From Octopus vulgaris (lineage: Eukaryota), in assembly GCA_951406725.2 (NCBI GenBank), contig OX597817.1, positions 52,142,001-52,206,000 on the forward strand: DNA of 64,000 nucleotides, in the 5' to 3' direction. The translations under genes were made by a program, and so were the position numbers. This document shows, piece after piece, positions 18,144 to 57,770 of this stretch. The stretch's first letter is position 1. Each line of letters starts with the position of its first letter. Below the pieces are notes generated by a model, which saw nothing but the letters and a program-made list of their open reading frames with translations, had not been told where the DNA came from and ran no database searches.

Positions 18144-18300
18144 GGGCGGCGGCATATGATGTAGTGGTTAAGAGTGCAGGCTACTAACCCCAAGATTCCG
18201 AATTTGATTCAAGGCAGTGACCTGAATAATAATAATAATAATATTAACAACATTGAAAATACTTTAGGAATGAGAACCCAGGTTCAAAATTTCCCCAAGA
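18144..18300 (+). mobile_element. tRNA-headed hammerhead-SINE family, copy truncated just before the ribozyme
   Basis: Head, (AAT)n tract and ...tttccccaaga are colinear with 35370-35512. Confidence 0.7.
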
Positions 18301-28846: not shown

Positions 28847-29439
28847 CCTTTCAGCATTTAAACCTGTCCAAATATTCTACCTGTTTGTTACTAATTTATC
28901 AGTTCAAACCAGCCAGATTTGGCTTCTCACACCTACCCAACAATGTCATCCAAAAATATACATTCACATCTGCAAAATCTCAAACAACAATATAAGGCAT
29001 GATTAATTAAAAATGTCAATAAATATTACATTTACTCTTTTACTTGTTTCAGTCATTTGACTGCGACCATGCTGGAGCACTGCCTTTAGTAGAGTAAATC
29101 GATCCCAGGACTTATTCTTTGTAAGCCTAGTACTTATTCTATCGGTCTATTTTGCTGAACTGCTAGGTTACAGGGACGTAAACACACCAGCATCGGTTGT
29201 CAAGCGATGTTGGGGGGGACAAACAAATACCCCGCAAACACACATATATACGATGGGCTTCTTTCAGTTTCCATTCATCATATCCACTCACAAGGTTTTG
29301 GTTGGCCCAAAGCTATTGTAGAAGACACATGCCCAAGGTGCCACGCAGTGGGACTGAACCCAGAATCGTGGTTGGTAAGCAAGCTACTTACTACACAGCC
29401 ACTCCTGCACCATGACAGGATAATCTGAATACTAAAGGG
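28847..29439. mobile_element. piggyBac-type MITE, family 2, interrupted by a family A SINE (29031-29408, -)
   Basis: TTAA|CCTTTCAGCATT at the left end and ATACTAAAGGG|TTAA at the right. Confidence 0.7.
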
Positions 29440-31890: not shown

Positions 31891-32035
31891 ACCGTTCTAT
31901 ATTTCAGAGATGAGGGATTCCGTACATTATCTACATTGGACTGATATGTGTCCTCAACTTGTTTGTTGTTAACATAACATTTTAGCTGAGATACCCTGCA
32001 GCCTTCATCAGGTGTCCTGGTAGAATTTTGAACTC
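31891..32035 (-). mobile_element. Hammerhead-SINE family, 3' half, decayed
   Basis: Minus strand reads gacac-ctgatga-a-ggctg-cagggtatct-cagct-aaaa-tgtt-atgtt and is colinear with 35215-35349. Confidence 0.7.
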
Positions 32036-32191
32036 AACGAGGACACATATCCGATCAATGTTGATAATTAACAAATATTGCGAGTGTGGAAAATAATGCT
32101 GTAACTCCAACGAAAATTTTAGGAAAATAAAAATAAGTGGAAATTTTACCAATGAGTGTGTTACATTATAAGACAACAGAATATGTTTGTT

Positions 32192-33592: not shown

Positions 33593-33870
33593 ATAGACAC
33601 ACCTCGTGTGCATTTTTGTGTATGTACTACGTATAAAACATATTTGCAAGAAACAGTACAATATAGCATTTATTTTGTTCTTGCCTTCATGTTTACATAT
33701 ATATGACATCTATAAATATACATATATATATATATATATGTATGTATATTTATAGATGTCATATATATGTAAACATGAAGGCAAGAACAAAATAAATGCT
33801 ATATTGTACTGTTTCTTGCAAATGTTTTATACGTAGTACATACACAAAAATGCATACGAGGTGTCTCTAT
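33593..33870. repeat. 278-bp near-perfect palindrome centred on (TA)n
   Basis: The arms are reverse complements with about 2 substitutions and a 2-bp indel outside the microsatellite centre. Confidence 0.9.
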
Positions 33871-35214
33871 GTCTAGATGAATGAAAGTATAATCCAGTGG
33901 CATACACTTGAAAAATTGCAAGGTATCTAACCTAAATTAAAGCTCATTCATCTCCAAGTAGTTCTGACAGTGGAATCTGCACTCAGCCCTGCAAGTTCAC
34001 AAAAACATATTTTAATGATATTGAATACTCTATACTTACCAAATTGAATTACATATCAATAAGAATATCATTTTATACATGGAAATAAACCAGAGTGTGT
34101 GAAGTATCTTCTAGAACATACAGTTAAAACAGTTTAAACCTCTTTCTATCTGTATGACTGGTAACTCAATTGAACCAAATGCAGCCCTTAATATGCCTAT
34201 GAATATAGAGCAAAGATAGAAATTTTCAGAATATTTTAAACCAACATTTGAAATACCCAGCATGACCATTTTTGTCTGGTAAGATAGTTCGTGCAATTAA
34301 AATATTTTTGAAGCCAAAATTAAGAAGCACGCGAGTTTTCTTGGAGCATTGTGATACAGAAATAAAATAACGAAATAATGAAGACAAGAGTTTCTTACTG
34401 TGCTTAAGGGAAAATTTAGAAACCTTTAAATAATTCAGGTACAAAGCGGCTAACCGGCTTCCGTGCCAGTGGCACTTAAAAGGCACCATTAAAGCGTGAT
34501 CGTTACCAGCGTCGCCTTACTGGCACTCGAGCCCCGTGCTAGTAGGGTATTAAGAGCACCATCCGAGCTTGATTGTTGCCAGTGTGGCTATCTGGCCTCC
34601 ATGCCAGTGGCACATAAAAGACACCATTCGAGCATGATCATTACCAGCATCGCCTTACTGGCACCTGCGTCGGTGGCATGTGTAAAGGATTTGAGCGAGG
34701 TCGTTGACAGTAACGCTCGACTGGCACGTAAGAAGCACCCACTAAACTCTCGGAGTGGTTGGCGTTCGGAAGGGCATCCAGCTGTAGAAAATCTGCCAGA
34801 TCAAGATTGAAGCCTGGTGCGGCCATCTGGTTCGCCAGCCCTCAGTCATTCGTCCAACCCATGCTAGCATGGAAAGCAGACGTTAAACGATGGTGATGAT
34901 GATGAAATATCCAGCATCAGAAGTGAATGAAATAAAGAAATCTGAGTCTTTGCAGATCTGGCAATGTTGGTTGTAGTGAAGATAGTGGCACCGTAGGATC
35001 CATGTTGATGGCAGTGAAGTAAGAAGTTTTGTATTCATTATTTTGCTATTTTAAGAAGTTCACAATAACGAAAAGCAGGAATTAAAGAAGGAAAAAAGAA
35101 ATTTGAAAGTCTTTGATTTCTCTGAAAATGATGTTCCAATTTAGGGCTTTCATAATCTCTTACCATTTTTTGTTTATAAAGATGAACTGAGAAGTAAGAC
35201 ACTTGGAAGATAAC

Positions 35215-35605
35215 ACAGTTCTATATTTAAAAGATGAGGAATTATGTATATTATTTACATTTGATCGATATTTGCCCTCATCTTGTTTGTTGTTAACACA
35301 ACATTTCAGCTGATATACCCTCCAGCCTTCATAAGGTGTCTTGGGGAAACCAATACGCCATATGCCCACGGGTATATGGCGTAGTGGTCAAGAGCACAGG
35401 CTATTAACCCCAAGATTCCAAGTTTGATTCCAAGCAGTGACATGAATAATAATAACAACAACATTGAAAAATACAGTAGAAAAGAGAACCCAGGTTTGAA
35501 ATTTCCCCAAGACACCTGATGAAGGCTGGAGGGTATATCAGCTGAAATGTTGTGTTAACAACAAACAAGATGAGAACAAATATCCGTCAAATGTAAATAA
35601 TGTAC
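35215..35605. mobile_element. Head-to-head dimer of a tRNA-headed SINE carrying a minimal hammerhead motif
   Basis: The + copy (35370-35605) has A-box tggcgtagtgg and a decayed B-box. The - copy (35366-35215) is internally deleted. Confidence 0.75.
35511..35556 (+). ncRNA. Type I minimal hammerhead ribozyme motif, Penelope type, CpG-decayed
   Basis: Stem I GACAC/GUGUU, core CUGAUGA, stem II GGCUG/CAGCU, then GAAA-U-GUU. Confidence 0.6.
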
Positions 35606-36809
35606 TTGAAAGACAACTCTCATTTCTCAAAGATACACACTGGTAGCTGTGTTTTTGGAAGATTAAATTCAAAGAAAACTACAAAGTAAAAATAACCAAA
35701 ACAGAGCAAATATTTACACTGCTGAAATGAAAAATAAAATTATTCGACTCTTTAGATACCAAACAGCTTGAGATTGCTCCTGGTCGTAAGAGACAAACCC
35801 CCAGTTTCAAAGTGATCCAAACAAAAACCTTTTGTCAAAATTTCTCGATTATGTTCAAACACTTAGCTTAATAATTCTTTTACTTGTTTCAGTTATTTGA
35901 CTGCAGTCATGCTGGAGCACTGCCTTAAAGGATGTTACTCAAAGAATTTGACTGCAAGACTTATTCTTTGTAAGCCCAGTACTTATTCTATCAGTCTCTT
36001 TTGCCAATCCACTAAGTTACAAGGATATAAACACAGACACACAAAAAAAATATATATACATGACAGACTTCTTCCAGTTTCCATCTACCAAATCCACTCA
36101 CAAGGCTATAGTAGAAGACATATTACCTAAGGTTCCATGCAGTGGGACTGAACTATGTGGTTGGAAAGTGAGCTTCTTAACATTTATTTTATTAAAAGTG
36201 TGAAGGCACGTGGCCTAGTGGTTAGGGTGCTGCACTCACAATCTAGCAATCATGAGTTCGATTCCTGGAGTGCACAGTATGTTGTGCTCTTGAGCCACAC
36301 ACTTCATTTCCTGTTGCTCCAGTCCATTCAACCACGGGTAACCCTGCAATGGCCCAGCCTTTCAATCAGTGGGGAAGCTGGCCTGCTCACACAGCTAGTG
36401 GGGTTGCATCATTTGAAAGTTAAAACAATGAGAGAAGCACACTGTGATCAGTGATGTATAACAACTTCTGATAATAATCGAAACATAGGCAAACACAGGT
36501 AGAGCAGTACTTTCAAAATACTGTAACAAAATGGACAATATACTTTGATGGTCAGTTTAAGGTCTTGATAGAGGAGATGTATAATCAATAGCTATGGCTA
36601 TTTGATCTTATTTTCAGACAAAGAATCTCATATCACAATATGCAATAGTAAATTTTTTTCAAAGATGATGAGTTGTTTGAAGGAAATTTAGCTGCTACGT
36701 GTAGTAGGACATACACTTACACAGAGACCAATCATGTCTTTTTTTTCAAATGTACAATACATCTCAATCAGATGTTTTCTATCCTTTAGTATTCAGATTA
36801 TTCTGTCAA

Positions 36810-37179
36810 GGCGCAGGAGTGGCTGTGGTAAGTAGCTTGCTTACCAACCACATGGTTCTGGGTTCAGTCCCACTGTGTTGCACCTTGGGTAAGTGTCTTC
36901 TACTATAGCCTCGGGCTGACCAAAGCCTTGTGAGTGGATTTGGTAGACAGAAACTGAAAGAAGCCTGTCATATACATATATATGTGTTTGTGTGTCTTTG
37001 TCCCCCCAACATCGTTTGACAACCGATGCTGGTGTGTTTAAATCCCTGTAACTTAGCGGTTCGGCAAAAGATACCGATAGAATAAGTACTAGGCTTACAA
37101 AGTCCTAGGATCGATTTACTCGACTAAAAGGCGGTGCTCCAGCATGGCCACAGTCATGACTGAAACAAGTAAAAGAGTA
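36810..37179 (+). mobile_element. tRNA-derived SINE, family A, full length
   Basis: Head tggctgtggtaag...gggttcagtccc, central TA/TG microsatellite, tail ggcggtgctccagcatggcc...gaaacaagtaaaagag. Other copies at about 4156-4406, 12846-13170, 17326-17620, 17946-18140, 35876-36180, 49205-49612(-), 50124-50512(+) and 54054-54443(+). Confidence 0.85.
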
Positions 37180-38186
37180 TTATATGTATGCAATATGTAA
37201 CTTAAGGACCACAAAAAAACCCCCCTTATTGCAATACAGCAATGGAATATACACCAAAATCAGAGCCAATTAAGCCTCTCACAGGCTTAATTGCTTTGGT
37301 GCTTGCATTTAGTTCTTTTTATTTTTACGAAGCTAGTTTCCTAACTATGTAGTCTTGGGTTCAGTTCCACTGCATAACATCTTGGACAAAAGTCCTCTAA
37401 CTATAGCCCTGGGCTATACACACAAATACTGTGAAGCATCCTGGTGCTTTACTGACTGAGTTTGCTCAAGTTTTTTCAAGCTATGAATGGACATTCCTAA
37501 CAGGTAAAACTCTCCTTTATTACTCTTTAGCATACAGGTTACTCTGTTAAACCAAATGCAGTGCTCATTCAATCGTATTGATTTGAATTAATCATGTATA
37601 GCATTGATTATCATCATCATTTAATGTTCGTTGTCCATGCTAGCACATTCAAAGGCTGCACCAGGATCCAGTTTGATTTGGCATGGTTTTCTACGGCTGG
37701 ATGCCCTTCCTAACGCTAACTACTCTCAGAGTGTAACAGGTGCTTTTATGTGCCACGGCTGCAATTTTGCTTGGCTTAATGGATCTTCTTCTCAAGCATG
37801 ACAATGCCAAAGGTCCTGGTCATTGCCTCCATGAGGCCCAACACTCGAAAGGAACTCAGCCACCTCGCCTCTATGAGGCCCGCTTGAAACGAACTCAGTC
37901 GTTATTTTTAGAATGGCATTGTACGGCAAGTATGAAAAGCAAAATCTAGCCAGGTTCAAGCTCACGCGATGTCTGCTCCAATAATCAGTGAATTCTTTGT
38001 GACAGTCAGCAATTGATGACAAGATGAGTTACTACAGGTCACACCATCCCAAAGTGTGTATGCATGTGACCACATGTGAACTTGTATTCTCACTGAATCC
38101 TTCAAACATGACTTACTGGTTGGAGTCAGCTCCACCCATCCTCATTGAAAACCACCACATGTACTAGTAGCTATGCTACCTTATAA

Positions 38187-47725: not shown

Positions 47726-49622
47726 TTAATCAATCACTGAAGAATGGAAAGCAATTTAGTGAACTTGAATTCCCGTTCTACAGATTTAGCCATTTTCACA
47801 GGCTTTGTAACTGCTGTATTTACTTGCACTTGTAAGTTGCACCCCTAATTTAATGTTAAATCTTGGTACAAAACATTTCCTCTTTATAATTTTAGCTCTG
47901 CCTTATGAATAAATCACACCCCAGGCTTTTCAGTTAAAATCAAGTATAAAATAGTGCAATTTTACACACAAATGGTATAGTTATATTTATATAACACATA
48001 TTTGATAAATATTTGAACTTACAGGGCGATTATTCTTCTTCATTGGAACTTCTGACTTCAAAGGTGCTACAGGCTCCTGTAGAAACAGAAATGTATATTA
48101 GACTTTTCATAGCATACTGTAATCAATGCACATATGGTAATCATACTGTAATAAGAAAAGATTTTATAACTTTTTTTAACAACTTCAGTTGTAAGAAAAC
48201 TGACAACACTTGTAAAGACTACTACATATATGTATATATAAAACCATAATTCATGTAAGCTGTCTATATAAGAAAATAGAAGCAAACTATTTTTAAACTG
48301 CTTAAAAAAGTTTAATGCTTTTTTTAAAATTTTACCTAGACTGGCTTGCCAGTCCTCAGTCCAACTGTCCAGCATGGAAAGCGAATGTTAAACAATGATG
48401 ATGAGGTAGAGAGAGGAGAGAATGAACATTAAAACATCTGATGTGAAATAAATGAGAGTCAAATCAGCAATGCCAAAACATCTCATACTCGATGAGTATG
48501 AGAGCCATAGTTTGCAGCAGAGAGCTGGAACAGACTACTAGGAATCCCATCTGATGCTCTAACAATTCTACTAGTCCATTGTCCCAGATTGATACTTTGA
48601 TAAATGAATTCTCCACACATTCTGTAATGAATGGTAGATTCACTGACACCACACTCATAGCCCACAACAGCAAAGGTTTTGTCAGATATTTTCTTTATCG
48701 TCTACCTTTTCATGCAAAGAATTCACTCGTCTGCATCATTTGTGGAGTCAGAGGCCTTTGTAGTTTTTCCTATCCACTAGTCCCATGTTAATGGGTACAA
48801 GCACATAAATCCACATCAAAAACACACAGGCCTGCAGCATGGTCATGTAAACACAAGCAAAAATTAGTGCACTGTAGGTCGTCACTAGTATCATGTTCTT
48901 ATAGATCAGTGATGAAGGAGTCAGTGATAAATGACACTGTCATGTTCCAGGGCAAAGCTGGTGTCTGTCTACTTCAGTCCACCTTATCAACAAATTCCCA
49001 CTTCTTGGTTGACCAATAGTTGAAGGAAAGGCACTAATCTGGGATTGGAGAAGAAATGCAGTGGAGTAACCATTGCATACTTGTTAGCATTTCTTACGAT
49101 ACAGATCTAAGTTCCAAATAAGAAGTTTTGTTGATTGGACTAGTCTTGCTTAAACACTGAGACTAAATGTTTCTGCTTCTGTTTATTTCCTTTTAAAACC
49201 AAACACTCTCTCTTTTCTCTTTTACTTGTTTCAGGCATTTGACTGCGGCCATGCTGGAGCACCGCCTTTAATCGAGCAACTCGACCCCGGGACTTATTCT
49301 TTGTAGGCCCAGTACTTATTCTATCGGTCTCTTTTTGCCGAACCGCTAAGTGAAGGGGGACATAAACACAATAGCATCGGTTGTCAAGCAATGCTAGGGC
49401 GACAAACACAGACACACAAATATACACACACATACATATATATATACATATATCCGACAGGCTTCTTTCAGTTTCCGTCTACCAAATCCACTCACAAGGC
49501 ATTGGTCGGCCCGAGGCTATAGCAGAAGACACTTGCCCAAGATGCCACACAGTGGGACTGAACCCGGAACCATGTGGTTGGTAAGCAAGCTACTTACCAC
49601 ACAGCCACTCCTCTTATAAATA

Positions 49623-49851: not shown

Positions 49852-52800
49852 TCTTATAAATAACAGTACAAAGTTTCAGAGTTGTACTTGTTTTTAACAG
49901 GTGACCTATATGCATGTATGTATATAGGTGTGTTTAATCACATTTATCAACGTTATTTTTAGATTACTTTTGCACCCACCCTTTTAACAACCTCTAGATA
50001 GCAGTAAGCTAACTTCTAAAGAATTTTACCCAAAAAGAAATGTACTGGAGTACTTTGCTTATACATATGCATTGGAGCATGGATAAATTAAAAACTTTAA
50101 AAAAAAAAAGTTGTAAACAAATAGGCGTAGGTGTGGCTGTGTGTTAAGTAGCTTGCTTACCAACCACAAGGTTCCGGGTTCAGTCACACTATGTGTCACC
50201 TTGGGCAAGTGTCTTCTACTATAGCCTCAGGCCGACAAAAGCCTTGTGACTAGATTTGGTAGGCAGAAACTGAAAGAAGCCCGTCGTATATATGTGTGTG
50301 GCTATGTATCTGTGTTTGTCACCCCCAACATTGCTTGGCAACCAATGCTGGTGTGTTTACATCCCATAACTTAGCGGTTTGGCAAAATAGACCGATAGAA
50401 TAAGTACTAGGCTTACATAGAATAAGTCCTGGGGTCGATTTGCTCGACTAAAGGCGGTGCTCCAGCATGGCCACAGTCAAATGACTGAAACTAGTAAAAG
50501 AGTAAATAAGTAAGGCCTAGTTTGAAGTCAATATGAATACAGGAGGTGCATAATTTCAGTAAAAGAAAAAACTGCAAGGCCTGTAAGAAGAAACCATTAA
50601 CTGCATTTCAAACAGTTTTCTGGAGCTGTGTCAATGACCAGGTCACAGATGTGTGAGGAAAAATTCTGACAGCTCAAGAAATAAGCATGAATTTAACAGT
50701 ATATGTTAGCTTTTAACCTTTCAGCATTTAGATTATTCTGTCAAATATAATGTTTATTTATTCCCAATGTTTTGAATGAATCCTGCATTATCTTGTAGCT
50801 TTGAGATTTTGATGATGTTATTGTTTATTTTTAAGATGACATTTACAAGGTAGATACGAGAGGCTAGGTTGGGATGGTTTGAACATAAAGCAAGTGGAAT
50901 ATTTCGGCTGGACATGGTCAGTTTAAATGTTAAAGGGTCAAATAGCTAAACAAACTCTTCTGATGACATAAATGTAATAATGTTATGTTATTACATTAGT
51001 TATTTATTAATTATTTGATAGTTTTATCTATCTCACCATTCAATAATGTTTCAAGCTCTCAAAAAGTAAAATGAAGATATGATATGAATCACCAAATTGG
51101 AATGAGATGTTCTGACAATCAAACAGTTAAGGGTCTAGGGACACAACACAATGATTGCTGTAGTAAAGGTTTTTGAATGTGTAACCATATAGTCGGTCAG
51201 TAGTGTGTTTAAAAGATATTAAATCATAAAATTTAACCTTCTGCCTATTTTTTTTCAACCACCAGAGTAATTTGGGACTTATGAAAAGGAAAGCTTTACA
51301 TTGCTCAGAACATACAAAACAAGCATGGACATTTTGGACAACTTATAAAAATGCTTTGGAAAGGCAATGTGTTAAAGATAACAAAAAAAAAAAAAAAAAA
51401 AACCCAATTATTTTTTCTAATTTCTGATATGGTTTCTGCAAGAAGCAATTCAAGGGTTTACGTTTGAAAAAGAAACAAATAGCAAGGAGTTGTCTTTAGA
51501 TGAATCAGCTATAAATATTCATCTACCAAGGAAGAATATTTTGAGAGCATAAGTGAAAATCTTCAAAATGCTTTTCAAAATTTTATGGCAATATAATCAA
51601 ACAATACGATGCCAATTCATATTTTTTCACTTTACAGAAAATGCAAAATTATGTAGTTATATACACCTGGTGACAAAATTTCAAGTCTGTACATAAAAAG
51701 TTAAAGTGACAAACAAATATTGTTGTGAACAATCTTGATTATGATTAATTTAAACCAATGTGAATGAAAGAGTAATCCAAACACTTAAGGATTAAAGTAT
51801 ACACTGGTTTTACAATTAATGAATAAAAATTATAAATTACACTGATGCAATGGTATTGTATGCTTCTATAAAAATCAAGTGAAAGACACCTTAAGAGTAA
51901 TAATCTGGGAGCAGCCAACTGGCTTCCGTACCCATGGCACGTAAAAGGGCATCATTTGAGCGTGATCGTTACCAACATCGCTTCACTGGCACCTGTGCCG
52001 GTGGCACGTGTAAAAGATTCAAGCAAGGTCATTGCCAGTACCGCCTGACTGGCGCCTGTGGCACGTAAAAAGCACCCACTACACTCTCAGAGTGATTGGC
52101 GTTAGTTAGGAAGGGCATCCAGCTGTAGAAACTCTGCCAGATCAAGATTGGAGCCTGGTGCAGCCATTTGGTTCGCCAGCCCTCAGTCAAAATCGTCCAA
52201 CCTATGCTAGCAGGGAAAGCAGACGTTAAACGATGATGATGTCACCTTACCAAGAAACCATTACTGATGTGAAGACAAGGAAAGATGCACACACACACAC
52301 ACACACATTCAGTTTCTTTGTACAAAATCCATTCACAAGGCTTTGTCAGCCTGCGGCTATAGCAAGAAACATTTTGCCCTTGGTGCCAAGCATTGGGACC
52401 GAGCCCAAAGCCATGGGTTTGGGAAACAAACCTCTTAACCGCATAGAAACTCCTGTGCCTACAAAACAGTGCATGTTCACCTACAGAGAGCAGAATTTTA
52501 TCAGTACCAATTTTTATTTTGGTATTTACCAACACTCAAGACGTAAATGCGAAAATAAACACACACACACAAGTAACATTTAACCTCAAAACTATAAAAT
52601 GAAACTAAATACATTTGACATCTTGTTGACCAACTTATTAATCTGTGATGGAAAATAATAAACCACTGCTCTATCAAGACAAATTCAACAGAATTTCGTC
52701 GGTTGTTTTAACTTCTTATTTCTTTATTGCTCACAGGGGGCTAAACATAGAGGGGACAAACAAGGAGAAAGGGATTAAGTTGATTACATCGCCCCCAGTG

Positions 52801-53161: not shown

Positions 53162-55520
53162 AAAATAAGTACGTACACATTGACAACAAAGTTGACTAAG
53201 ACAGGTAGAAGTAATAAATAAATGTGACTGAGGCACAACGCAACAAGGGCAGCAGAGTTTGAAAAATAGGAATTCCAGATTAGATGTCTTGCTCAATAAC
53301 AACAACAACAACAATTCTACTGCAGTTCAATTCGTTAGACAAAATTATAGCTCTGTTCTATTTAAGCAACAGTAAACAGCAAGCAAGCAAGCAAGCAAAC
53401 AAGTCCTTCAAAATGCAAGTAAACAAACAAGTACAAATAGACAGAATACAACCTCCTAACTCAAATGCTATTATATTCAAGCTGTGTCCATAGTGCATAC
53501 ATTATCATTATGAACCTGAAATCAGACACACATACACCTACACACACTGTAGATAACAATGCTTATCTTATAAGACATGTTAAGTTAATTCAAAAAGTTG
53601 TTTTATTTTATTAGCCCATTTGCTTTACTGAGTCGGTGTTTATTTGCGAAATTAACATTTGTTAAATAAAAGCCTGCTTTTCTTTGATCAGATGCAGTGA
53701 GACTTTAAAATATTTTTTAAATAGTTAAAAACAGTCGTCGACGTTTTTCTATGTATTTTAAAATCAATACAACTTGAAAAGAAATTAGAATTTTCTTGTG
53801 GTGAAATTTAAATTATATTTCAACAAGTGAAGGTCACTCAATACTGTGCTACTTTTGCTGTTATGATATCATTGGATTATTGTTAAACAGAGCTCTTTAC
53901 AAACATTGGGAAAAATAACATATGTGCTTAGCCATGAATCCAACAGCTCTAGGATGCAAATTCACAGCTTAAATAACTTGGAAAAGTAAGTCTGTGAGCA
54001 CAGACACATACTGAGGATTGAAAATCGAAGACAGTGGATATTATTCATAATTTACTGGCTGTGTGGTAAGTAGCTTGCTTACCAACATGGTTCCGGGTTC
54101 AGTCCCACTGCGTGGCACCTTGGGCAAGTGTCTTCTACTATAGCCTTGGGCCGACCAAAGCCTTGTGAGTGGATTTGGTAGACAGAGACTGAAAGAATCC
54201 CGTTGTATATATGTATACATATGTGTGTGTGTGTGTGTGTCTGTGTTTGTCCATCCAACATCGCTTGACAACTGATGCTGGTGTGTTTACGTCTCCATAA
54301 CTTAGCGGTTCGGCAAGAGACCAATAGACTAAGTACTAGGCTTACAAAGAATAAGTCCTGGGGTCGATTTGCTCGACTAAAGGCGGTGCTCCAGCACGGC
54401 CACAGTCAAATGACTGAAACAAGTAAAAGAGTAAAGAGTAAGAGATATAAGCATTTTTGCAATTGTCCAAAATAGTATGAAACTTTTTATTTGGCTGGAA
54501 TGTTTTGAAACTGATATTGAGAACCAAGTGTGATATTTTAATAACAGCAGCAGCATGCTGCTACTACTATTATATTATTATTATTATTATGGCAGAATTG
54601 TTAGCACACCAGGCAAATGCTTAGCAGCATTTCGTTGATCATTATGTTCTGAGTTCAAATTTGCCTGTTGTCTTTCTAAGGTTGATATAAGAAGAACCAG
54701 TTAAACACCAGAGCTGACGTAATCAACTTGCTTCCTCCCTGCAAATTTTAGGGCCTGTGCAATATAGCAGAAAGGATTGTTAACAATTAACTGCTTTGTA
54801 CGTTTGATCATGAATAATCAGAGTTATTCATCAATGGGTGATTGAGAGAGAGAGAGAGAACGAGATGATTGGGAGCAGTTGTATGGATGCAGGTGATTTA
54901 GCAGGATGGACAGGACATTCAGCCTGTTTTGGCACTGGAGAAGAAACACACACACACACACACACACACACTCAGATTAAAAAGAAAGTGAGAGGGGCAT
55001 GTATTACAATTTATGAATTGAACCTGAATGGCACAAACACTTTCCTCTACCTCATACATGTACAGATAAATATGTTCACATGAAGCGAGGAGAAACATTT
55101 CAATGCCTAATGTCGAATAAGTTAATGTTGAATAGGCAACACCAAACAAGTGACATCAAAACATCTCAAACCCACCAATAAAATGAGAGATCAAATCTGA
55201 ACAAACTTTATGCAGAAATATTAAAAACATAAGGGGAAATAATTACAACTGGTAATGGTCTCAGCTGACCACATGTTTTAATTTTACTCTAAAGGTGCTT
55301 ACCAGACAAAACACATATTTGTACATGCATTGCTTATGGTTTTCATCATCAGATGTCGAAATTAAGACAAAGGATAATCAGTTTCACAGGTGCTTTGAAC
55401 AGAAGGAAGAGATAAACCAAAAGAAGTTAATATGTGTGTGAAAGGAATAGAAGTTAACAACCAAGACAAATTAAAGGACCAACTTTGTTAGTTTTTGACT
55501 GATACATCATTCACCACAAT

Positions 55521-57770
55521 TCATCATCATCATCATCATCATCATTTAACGTCCGCTTTCCATGCTAGCATGGGTTGGACGGTTCAACTGGGGTCTGGGG
55601 AGCCCGAAAGCTGCACCAGTCCAGTCAGATCTGGCAGTGTTTCTACAGCTGGATGCCCTTCCTAACGCCAACCACTCCGAGAGTGTAGTGGGTGATTTTA
55701 TGTGCCACCGACACAGGTGCCAGACGAGGCTGGCAAACGGCCACGCTCGGATGGTGTTTTTTATGTGCCACCGACACAGGTGCCAGACGAGGCTGGCAGA
55801 CGGCCACGCTCGGATGGTGTTTTTTTATGTGCCACCGACACAGGTGCCAGACGAGGCTGGCAGACGGCCACGCTCGGATGGTGTTTTTATGAGCCACCGA
55901 CACAGGTGCCAGACGAGGCTGGCAGACGGCCACGCTCGGATGGTGTTTTTATGTGCCACCGACACAGGTGCCAGATGAGGCTGGCAAACGGCCACGATCG
56001 GATGGTGCTTGTTACGTGCCCACAGCACGGAGGCCAGTCGATGCGGTACTGGCTACGGCCACGTTCGGATGGTTTTCTTATGTGCCACGTGCCACCGGCA
56101 CTGGTACCACAAAGATACAGATTCCATTGATGTTCATCTATTTTGATTTGTTTTGATTTTGATTTTCACTTGCCTCAACAGGTCTTCACAAGTGTCACAA
56201 GAAGGAAGGTATGCACAGGTGGACTGACTACGTCCCAGGTAGGGGCCATGGGTTATGGCCTGACTAGTCTTGCCGGGTCTTCGGATGGTGTTTTTATGTG
56301 CCACCGACACAGGTGCTAGATGAGGCTGGCGAACGGCCACGATCGGATGGTGTTTGTCATGTGCCCACCGCACTGACTACAGCATTGATGGATTTCTTGT
56401 GTGCCACAGGCACTGGTACCACAAGATACAAATTCCATTGATGTTCATCTATTTTGTCTATTTTGATTTGATTTGATTTGATTTTCACTTGCCTCAACCG
56501 GTCTTCACAAGTGTCACAAGAAGGAAGGTATGCACAGGTGGACTGACTAGTCTTGCCGGGTCTTCGGAAGGTGTTTTTATGTGCCACCGACACAGGTGCC
56601 AGATGAGGCTGGCGAACGGCCATGATCGGATGGTGTTTGTTACGTGCCCACAGCACGGAGGCCGGTCGATGCGGAACTGGCTACGGCCACTTTCGGATGG
56701 TTCTCTTGTGTGCCACCGGCACTGGTACCACAAAGTGTGTGCCACCGGCACTGGTACCACAAAGATACAGATTCCATTGATGTTCATCTATTTTGATTTG
56801 TTTTGATTTTGATTTTCACTTGCCTCAACAGGTCTTCACAAGTGTCACAAGAAGGAAGGTATGCACAGGTGGACTGACTACGTCCCAGGTAGGGGCCATG
56901 GGTTATGGCCTGACTAGTCTTGCCGGGTCTTCGGATGGTGTTTTTATGTGCCACCGACACAGGTGCTAGATGAGGCTGGCGAACGGCCACGATCGGATGG
57001 TGTTTGTCATGTGCCCACCGCACTGACTACAGCATTGATGGATTTCTTGTGTGCCACAGGCACTGGTACCACAAGATACAAATTCCATTGATGTTCATCT
57101 ATTTTGTCTATTTTGATTTGATTTGATTTGATTTTCACTTGCCTCAACCGGTCTTCACAAGTGTCACAAGAAGGAAGGTATGCACAGGTGGACTGACTAG
57201 TCTTGCCGGGTCTTCGGAAGGTGTTTTTATGTGCCACCGACACAGGTGCCAGATGAGGCTGGCGAACGGCCATGATCGGATGGTGTTTGTTACGTTCCCA
57301 CAGCACGGAGGCCGGTCGATGCGGAACTGGCTACGGCCACTTTCGGATGGTTCTCTTGTGTGCCACCGGCACTGGTACCACAAAGTGTGTGCCACCGGCA
57401 CTGGTACCACAAAGATACAGATTCCATTGATGTTCATCTATTTTGATTTGTTTTGATTTTGATTTTCACTTGCCTCAACAGGTCTTCACAAGTGTCACAA
57501 GAAGGAAGGTATGCACAGGTGGACTGACTACGTCCCAGGTAGGGGCCATGGGTTATGGCCTGACTAGTCTTGCCGGGTCTTCGGATGGTGTTTTTATGTG
57601 CCACCGACACAGGTGCTAGATGAGGCTGGCGAACGGCCACGATCGGATGGTGTTTGTCATGTGCCCACAGCACGGAGGCCAGTCGATGCGGTACTGGCTA
57701 CGGCCACTTTCGGATGGTTTTCTCTTGTGTGCCACCGGCACTGGTACCACAAAGATACAAATTCCATTTT
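55521..57770 (-). repeat. Family B retroposon expanded into tandem arrays: about 5 x 59-bp units and about 2.5 x 650-bp units
   Basis: Near-identical ORFs recur at 56134, 56784 and 57434 (period 650). The short units lie at about 55697-55990. Confidence 0.9.

Follow-up and report, generated by a model that had tools for sequence, protein, structure and literature searches.

A Penelope-like element of Octopus vulgaris with a tRNA-like pseudo-LTR and a minimal hammerhead motif, and its possible relation to SINE-like short copies

tRNA-derived SINEs of octopus were reportedly described by Ohshima and Okada in 1994, and the 'Twin' SINE is said to appear in the O. bimaculoides genome paper. Set beside these by description only, the repeat family treated here shares the octopus host, the tRNA-like head and the high copy number. 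In Penelope-like elements (PLEs), an inverted 5' copy, a one-sided tail and a short target duplication form the published arrangement, and the available parts of the two sources describe both the mode of PLE transcription and the cause of the inverted, one-tailed insertions as unresolved (PMC8557442, PMC3846280). Moreover, the minimal hammerheads of PLEs were found to be inactive as monomers and weak as dimers, and pairs of them on opposite strands, 100-700 bp apart, were reported in metazoan PLEs (PMC4209133). Hammerheads are likewise part of short repeats. The SMalpha and Sjalpha repeats of schistosomes are tandem repeats cut into monomers, with no autonomous partner named in the accessible portion of PMC6765202, and non-LTR retrozymes, as far as the accessible portion of PMC7229834 describes them, feature canonical hammerheads, head-to-tail tandems and circular RNAs.

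In the 64,000-nt stretch of Octopus vulgaris DNA that was analysed (contig OX597817.1, here called the window), a sequence-only reading had proposed a retrozyme-like SINE at 35370-35605, composed of a tRNA-like head joined to a Penelope-type hammerhead. This copy forms one arm of an insertion whose two arms lie head-to-head, with the tail on one side only and a target duplication of 14 nt. The left target-site duplication (35201-35214, + strand) is identical to the right one (35604-35617, + strand) at 12 of 14 positions. It is followed by an inverted, 5'-truncated arm on the - strand (35215-35349), which covers positions 132-264 of the repeat unit and includes the hammerhead and a tail of ~30 nt. 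A palindrome without strand (35350-35387) forms the arm junction, with a loop of 2 nt between 35350-35367 and its mirror image 35370-35387; copies linked to an open reading frame (ORF) already contain the short central hairpin. The + strand arm begins with the tRNA-like head (35370-35442) at the start of the pseudo-LTR (pLTR), in register with genomic tRNAs, and continues with an (AAT/AAC)n linker (35445-35462) of variable length from copy to copy, the family ATG position (35482-35484), which is AAG in this copy, and a minimal type I hammerhead motif (35511-35556) as defined in PMC4209133, with a predicted cut after 35551. The remaining pLTR (35557-35603, + strand) ends at unit position ~234 and lacks the tail. 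Over 104 nt, the inverted arm (35215-35349) matches 35502-35605 with 94% identity. Pieces of the family had also been listed at 18144-18300, 31891-32035 and 35215-35349. All of them are real, and the last is no separate copy, being the inverted arm of the same insertion as 35370-35605, joined to it by the palindrome and flanked by the duplication. The copy at 18151-18300 (+ strand) comprises head and linker only and stops before the hammerhead core, and the one at 31894-32035 (- strand) is a 5'-truncated copy of a second subfamily, B, with hammerhead and tail. A short + strand piece of the 3' part of the unit at 32036-32067, found by eye, abuts this inverted subfamily B copy, which suggests another head-to-head remnant. 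The window further contains a near-perfect palindrome of 120 nt with an (AT)n centre (33673-33792), whose below-threshold Rfam microRNA matches reflect the hairpin, as well as a tandem array with periods of ~63 nt and ~650 nt that is linked to an abundant dispersed repeat (55691-57768) and two or more further families of abundant short repeats, 280-400 nt long (49210-49612, 50129-50514, 54056-54458, 29009-29438, 36783-37190, and many more).

The unit was defined by a search of the 2.8-Gb genome, which gave 5,044 candidates, 40 of them scored and 30 loci fetched; it measures ~265 nt. Abundance was estimated from 1.0 Mb taken at 100 arbitrary coordinates, where 16 loci with 4,368 bp of the family were found. 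The density of 9-26 loci per Mb corresponds to ~45,000 loci and 0.4% of the genome, as extrapolated from this 1.0-Mb sample. At non-CpG sites, 66 arms of subfamily A differ from their consensus by 4.2% in the mean and by 1.1% at minimum, and the family now looks old and broken. Words of the unit are present in sequencing runs under seven organism labels.

The tRNA-like head is confirmed, with an A-box at 35377-35387 (+ strand) and a B-box at 35422-35430 (+ strand), and it lies in register with genomic tRNAs. At tRNA spacing, the boxes fit the pattern given in PMC8969392. The B-box had been called decayed, which holds for the window copy with its one CpG-type change and not for the family consensus, where the box is intact. 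Similarly, the arm resembling tRNA-Asn exists in the window copy, and it is a variant of that copy (T in 4 of 30). The comparison covered 30 genes for tRNAs of the genome, limited to Arg, Ala, Thr, Cys and Lys plus a single Glu call, with none for Asn or Gln; of these, tRNA-Arg(TCG) matched best, scoring 15 where shuffles reached at most 9. Neither ARAGORN nor Rfam called the head a tRNA.

As to the hammerhead, a minimal type I descriptor with a two-base helix III matched a single site on both strands of the window, position 35516, which is the motif at 35511-35556. The same descriptor gave no match in 400 kb of arbitrary genome, where the family copies are decayed, and none in each of 10 shuffles. 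In the window copy, CpG changes at 35543 and 35548 turn the G10.1-C11.1 pair into G-U and break the palindrome. The proposal that reversal of CpG decay would restore the motif was borne out across the family: unmutated CG outnumbers every other form at each of the two sites, namely at the helix II/G12 site (CG 51, TG 32, CA 10 in 96 arms) and at the 15.2/16.2 site (CG 42, TG 36, CA 9 in 95 arms). Judged by its sequence, the restored family motif is a minimal hammerhead with an AACGUU palindrome. The family consensus features everything described for PLE minimal hammerheads in PMC4209133, i.e., the core boxes, the bulged base, G10.1-C11.1, the palindromic 15.2-16.2 and helices I and II, so that the Penelope-type assignment stands at the place where it had been made. 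The CUGANGA and GAAAC boxes and the stem pairing are likewise present in the consensus, core and helix II being identical in subfamilies A and B, which differ at 3 of 46 positions (two in loop II, one in helix I). A fully intact hammerhead was found in 7 of 88 arms; the window copy, having lost the palindrome, is not among them. The Rfam search called no hammerhead at its E-value threshold, even on a copy with an intact motif, and free-energy folding draws the hammerhead into other structures, both as monomer and as dimer, and thus neither supports nor tests the fold. Two further PLE families of the genome have the same hammerhead architecture with different helix sequences and an AAUAUU-type palindrome. 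Another minimal hammerhead family, also with an AACGUU palindrome, adjoins microsatellites (L004:1770-1810 and L181). At L034:~1200-1510, several head-to-tail repeats of ~70 nt each carry a decayed subfamily B hammerhead, a rare direct tandem in which dimer formation could be possible.

With high confidence, the unit is the ~265-nt pLTR of an autonomous, protein-coding PLE. This element of ~2.6 kb runs from an upstream unit through an ORF, coding for a reverse transcriptase (RT) and then likely a GIY-YIG nuclease, to the stop codon, 28 nt of spacer and a downstream unit that starts with the head. The reading frame opens inside the upstream unit and passes through the hammerhead and a tail of 30 nt into the body, and the ~30-nt tail of the short copies is this continuation into the ORF body. 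An arbitrarily sampled locus (L114) already contains a decayed RT-thumb and nuclease frame that runs into the tRNA-like head. A search with this coding stretch returned 30 loci, of which 29 have the head within 45 nt of the end of the match and 16 keep the hammerhead span; after removal of seven duplicates of one insertion on contig C31, the head is found in 22 and the hammerhead span in 16 of 23, the query locus included. The C31 insertion is part of a multi-copy segmental duplication, with eight copies (L229, L231-L234, L236, L241, L244; G000 C31) whose flanks are 95-98% identical. At the other end, a search with the 5' part of the ORF gave 30 loci. The unit lies directly upstream and continuous with the body in eight of them (seven aligning from the first three bases of the body and one with a deletion there), and inverted upstream in 11. 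Locus L344 shows the head, an ATG at unit position 112 and then 208 open codons leading through the hammerhead into the PLE N-terminus. Contigs X15 and X17, from runs of two organism labels, span the ORF end and the head. The whole unit, head included, therefore belongs to the autonomous element, and no separate SINE lineage sharing merely the 3' tail was found. The picture of a SINE with a tRNA head and a borrowed Penelope 3' half is not supported. The suggested search for an RT/GIY-YIG Penelope sharing the 3' half did find a PLE, one that shares the whole unit.

The protein was derived as a single frame of 723 codons in the alignment consensus of 50 pieces. A Pfam search recognised RVT_1 (41.7 bits, cut-off 29.6, E 1.4e-10) and called no GIY-YIG domain. 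All 19 sequences compared keep the C, Y, R and two H residues of the motif unchanged in the C-terminal domain. Relatives of the protein carry PF26215; two are named GIY-YIG, and one, from Octopus sinensis, has 74% identity. In the predicted structure, which is of middling confidence (pLDDT 60.5), residues 211-282 superimpose on the I-TevI catalytic domain over 67 residues (Z 5.5, rmsd 3.3), a Z within the range of a common arrangement, and the Foldseek matches of the domain have E about 1. Taken together, the invariant residues, the names of the relatives and the I-TevI match make a GIY-YIG assignment likely. No extra cysteine motif was seen in the RT-nuclease linker of L220 and L226.

Three other PLE groups of the genome were considered as partners and rejected. 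One is a young PLE from the GIY-YIG family search with an intact RT-GIY-YIG frame of 781 codons (L135:406-5226 and L136:81-4826; G000 C16 and C5), which lacks a shared 3' end. A further frame, 359-479 codons long, lies upstream, and CCAAT-like and TGACGTC motifs recur in the 3' region; two of its copies share 98% identity, many more are listed, and the descriptor found no minimal hammerhead in it. The second, an old family (L141-L165), has its own hammerhead and tail, and the tail of the octopus unit occurs alongside in 1 of 25 loci. The hammerhead at its 3' ends combines a long helix II with a palindromic helix III of the CCGAUCGG type. At L136:5520-6654, as the only case among 25 loci, the 29-nt tail of the octopus unit stands in inverted orientation at the 5' end of a fragment from another PLE family, which may reflect a template switch between families. 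The third group (L166-L195) consists of two families with minimal hammerheads of their own, 180-320 nt after the ORF and with an AAUAUU-type palindrome; the resemblance of their 3' ends to the tail was reached by 1,133 of 2,000 shuffles.

The insertion signature points in the same direction as the structure. Among 46 pairs of adjacent copies at most 120 nt apart, search-selected loci included, 38 are head-to-head and seven are on the same strand. In 33 pairs both arms reach the 3' region; the tail is found on exactly one arm in 31, on neither in two and on both in none. A target duplication score of at least 8 was obtained for 23 of 31 pairs versus 21 of 930 mismatched flank pairs, and the duplications measure 9-15 nt. 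Mobilisation by Penelope rather than LINE machinery, as suggested earlier, is thus supported by both the insertion signature and the position of the unit as pLTR of a PLE. The retrozyme-like character is not supported, given the prevailing head-to-head orientation and copy ends lying 50-85 nt beyond the predicted cut. Arm ends cluster at unit positions 231-241 and 262-265, and the cut is predicted after 181. As the ends lie away from the cut and intact motifs are so rare, a role of the hammerhead in defining the copies is disfavoured. Two hammerheads come to lie on opposite strands because the copies are mostly head-to-head. The arms of one locus share 16 non-CpG variants among 88 and 110, i.e., ~16% compared to 5% between loci, a weak excess that is no proof of fold-back copying. 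In L026, the inverted arms are separated at their junction by a telomere-like repeat, which reads TTAGGG on one strand.

Probably, the pLTR boxes serve as an internal Pol III promoter and the short transcripts would be reinserted by the enzymes of the element as SINE-like, often head-to-head copies. One element would yield full-length copies and, in addition, tens of thousands of short SINE-like ones. Transcription would start a few bases before the tRNA-like sequence, and a lone unit would give rise to a short RNA that could be copied back by the RT and nuclease of the element. The copy of the RNA 5' end might fold back on the small hairpin, or jump at a microhomology, and so generate the mirror arm; in the available part of PMC3846280 such palindromes are read as self-priming on an antisense template. 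Any short copy would retain the boxes and might itself serve as a source. Within a direct tandem, the promoter would lie upstream of the ORF without a terminator and could read through, which would place two hammerheads on one RNA. Since the hammerhead lacks a helix III of its own, cleavage is predicted for the dimer alone, so that single and head-to-head copies are likely silent and direct tandems could be active. With the predicted cut 70 nt downstream of the first ATG, cleavage would detach this codon from the ORF; RNAs that are cut and RNAs that are translated would then form distinct pools, or else translation would begin further down.

The case for Pol III has to be weighed against an ordinary Pol II-transcribed Penelope, whose pLTR captured a tRNA or SINE head as a passenger and whose short copies are 5' truncations with starts set by hairpin self-priming. 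On the evidence of start positions, boxes and TTTT content, it seems fairly probable that the tRNA-like sequence acts as a Pol III promoter, and the Pol II explanation is rather unlikely. The start pile-up was seen in the sampled loci, where 5 of 13 with starts between -8 and 156 begin at -8 to +1 (binomial P 7e-4, for an interval chosen after looking). Such a pile-up need not mean Pol III, since rotifer pLTR 5' palindromes co-occur with TATA/Inr motifs and occur without a tRNA, according to the accessible part of PMC3846280. The Pol II explanation does not readily account for five loci (L009, L028, L047, L105, L162) that start within ~2 nt of the first base of the head and have no mirror palindrome. 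It gains from the one dissected PLE promoter, which resembles TATA-less LINE promoters in the part of PMC2377424 at hand, and from the 8 of 16 sampled loci that start inside the unit and the three that extend into the ORF, as truncation predicts. The preservation of the boxes speaks for the promoter. Both fit the consensus in both subfamilies, and the non-CpG differences between the subfamily A-boxes are two G/A swaps. At these two positions the box consensus is left as a purine. TTTT is absent from the 2,385-nt body and the unit, compared to 5 in 1,029 nt, 5 in 726, 8 in 1,492 and 16 in 4,710 in four other PLE families (3.4-6.9 per kb). With 2.6-3.4 expected in the ORF, three shuffles put the absence at P 0.02-0.04 and a first-order Markov null at 0.11; the test covers one lineage, GGGG is likewise missing (2.8 expected) and four LINE ORF pieces are TTTT-poor too, so that the significance appears modest. 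RNA reads, in turn, show no discrete start, which suits the Pol II explanation. In three runs of one study (9,951, 8,169 and 7,395 reads), they are balanced between both orientations, 81-83% continue into unlike sequence, and neither starts nor ends pile up. This pattern fits passive transcription inside host RNAs and reflects presence in RNA, not independent transcription. A depth profile along a long copy dropped over the unit, conflicted with the layout of the RNA reads and was left unused for the head-step test. It is possible, if somewhat doubtful, that the whole 2.6-kb element is transcribed by Pol III from the upstream pLTR and that its sense strand is kept free of TTTT for that reason.

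A further explanation assumes a separate SINE lineage, with short units arising from masters of their own and the long element having gained a SINE at its 3' end. Its appeal lies in the anatomy, as a tRNA head, a linker and a retroelement tail are what a SINE consists of, and in the numbers, as units are much more numerous than ORF copies (unit sequence in 15 of 16 sampled loci, compared to three that reach the ORF end). Against it, 33 short-start arms compared with 28 ORF-linked arms (two of them subfamily B) showed no diagnostic position beyond CpG sites and scattered single changes, an indistinguishability that would equally be expected from truncated Pol II copies. Moreover, subfamily B arms are also found with upstream PLE sequence, in the few arms available, and the first codons of the ORF itself lie within the unit. 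A separate lineage is thus improbable, and Pol III-driven copying of the pLTR of the element is the preferred reading.

If the use of Pol III proved true, SINE-like families could arise inside an autonomous element, without a separate fusion of tRNA and tail, a route that may be relevant to how the schistosome hammerhead repeats arose. If the long RNA were also made in this way, the element would be a protein-coding retrotransposon run by Pol III and, besides, its own SINE source, and it would become a question how an uncapped RNA gets translated. If Pol III is not used, this is an ordinary old Penelope family, and annotation pipelines would probably list it as two things, a SINE and a PLE. 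As a recognisable type of promoter falls at the start of the pLTR and ~45,000 loci record starts and arm joins, the PLE mechanism becomes testable both statistically and at the bench.

A PLE with a tRNA-derived pLTR was not found in searches of the open literature; Repbase and Dfam were outside this comparison and may hold the family. It is not described in the available parts of PMC13282606, supplement included, or PMC8967140, and the main text of PMC4209133 mentions neither octopus nor tRNA. The octopus element agrees with an endonuclease-bearing PLE in its RT-containing ORF, its pLTRs and its insertion signature, and likely in its nuclease; it behaves like a SINE and shows no sign of a separate lineage. 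As far as the accessible parts of the sources go, it resembles Pen2/Pen2a of Adineta vaga (PMC3846280) and the general PLE scheme (PMC8557442) in having one ORF, for an RT and likely a nuclease, between pLTRs of ~200-270 nt. With Penelope/Poseidon PLEs, as described there, it shares a pLTR that holds the first codons, an inverted 5' pLTR, a 5' palindrome, a short target duplication and a tail of ~30 nt on one arm that extends the ORF. Its hammerhead agrees with the metazoan PLE type (PMC4209133) in the core boxes, the one unpaired base before helix II, G10.1-C11.1, the long helix II, the short helix I, the palindromic 15.2-16.2 and the missing helix III; there is no architectural difference, the octopus motif being known from sequence alone. 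Like the non-LTR retrozymes in the consulted part of PMC7229834, the family has a short non-coding unit, a type I hammerhead and a mollusc host, whereas its hammerhead is minimal instead of canonical and its copies form inverted pairs instead of head-to-tail monomers, with 7 of 46 adjacent pairs on the same strand. SMalpha and Sjalpha likewise combine a Pol III-type promoter with a hammerhead in a short repeat (PMC6765202, in part), whereas the octopus copies lie scattered through the genome and mostly head-to-head, reach beyond the predicted cut and represent the terminal repeat of an element with an ORF. The promoter end is where the differences to other PLEs lie. TATA/Inr motifs are present in the rotifer pLTR (PMC3846280), and Drosophila Penelope is driven by an internal promoter of LINE-like type (PMC2377424), each according to the part of the source available, whereas the octopus pLTR begins with a tRNA-like sequence containing A and B boxes. 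Schistosomes already offer an example of a hammerhead next to a Pol III promoter, within the accessible part of PMC6765202; the new part is the presence of tRNA-type A and B boxes at the pLTR start of a coding PLE.
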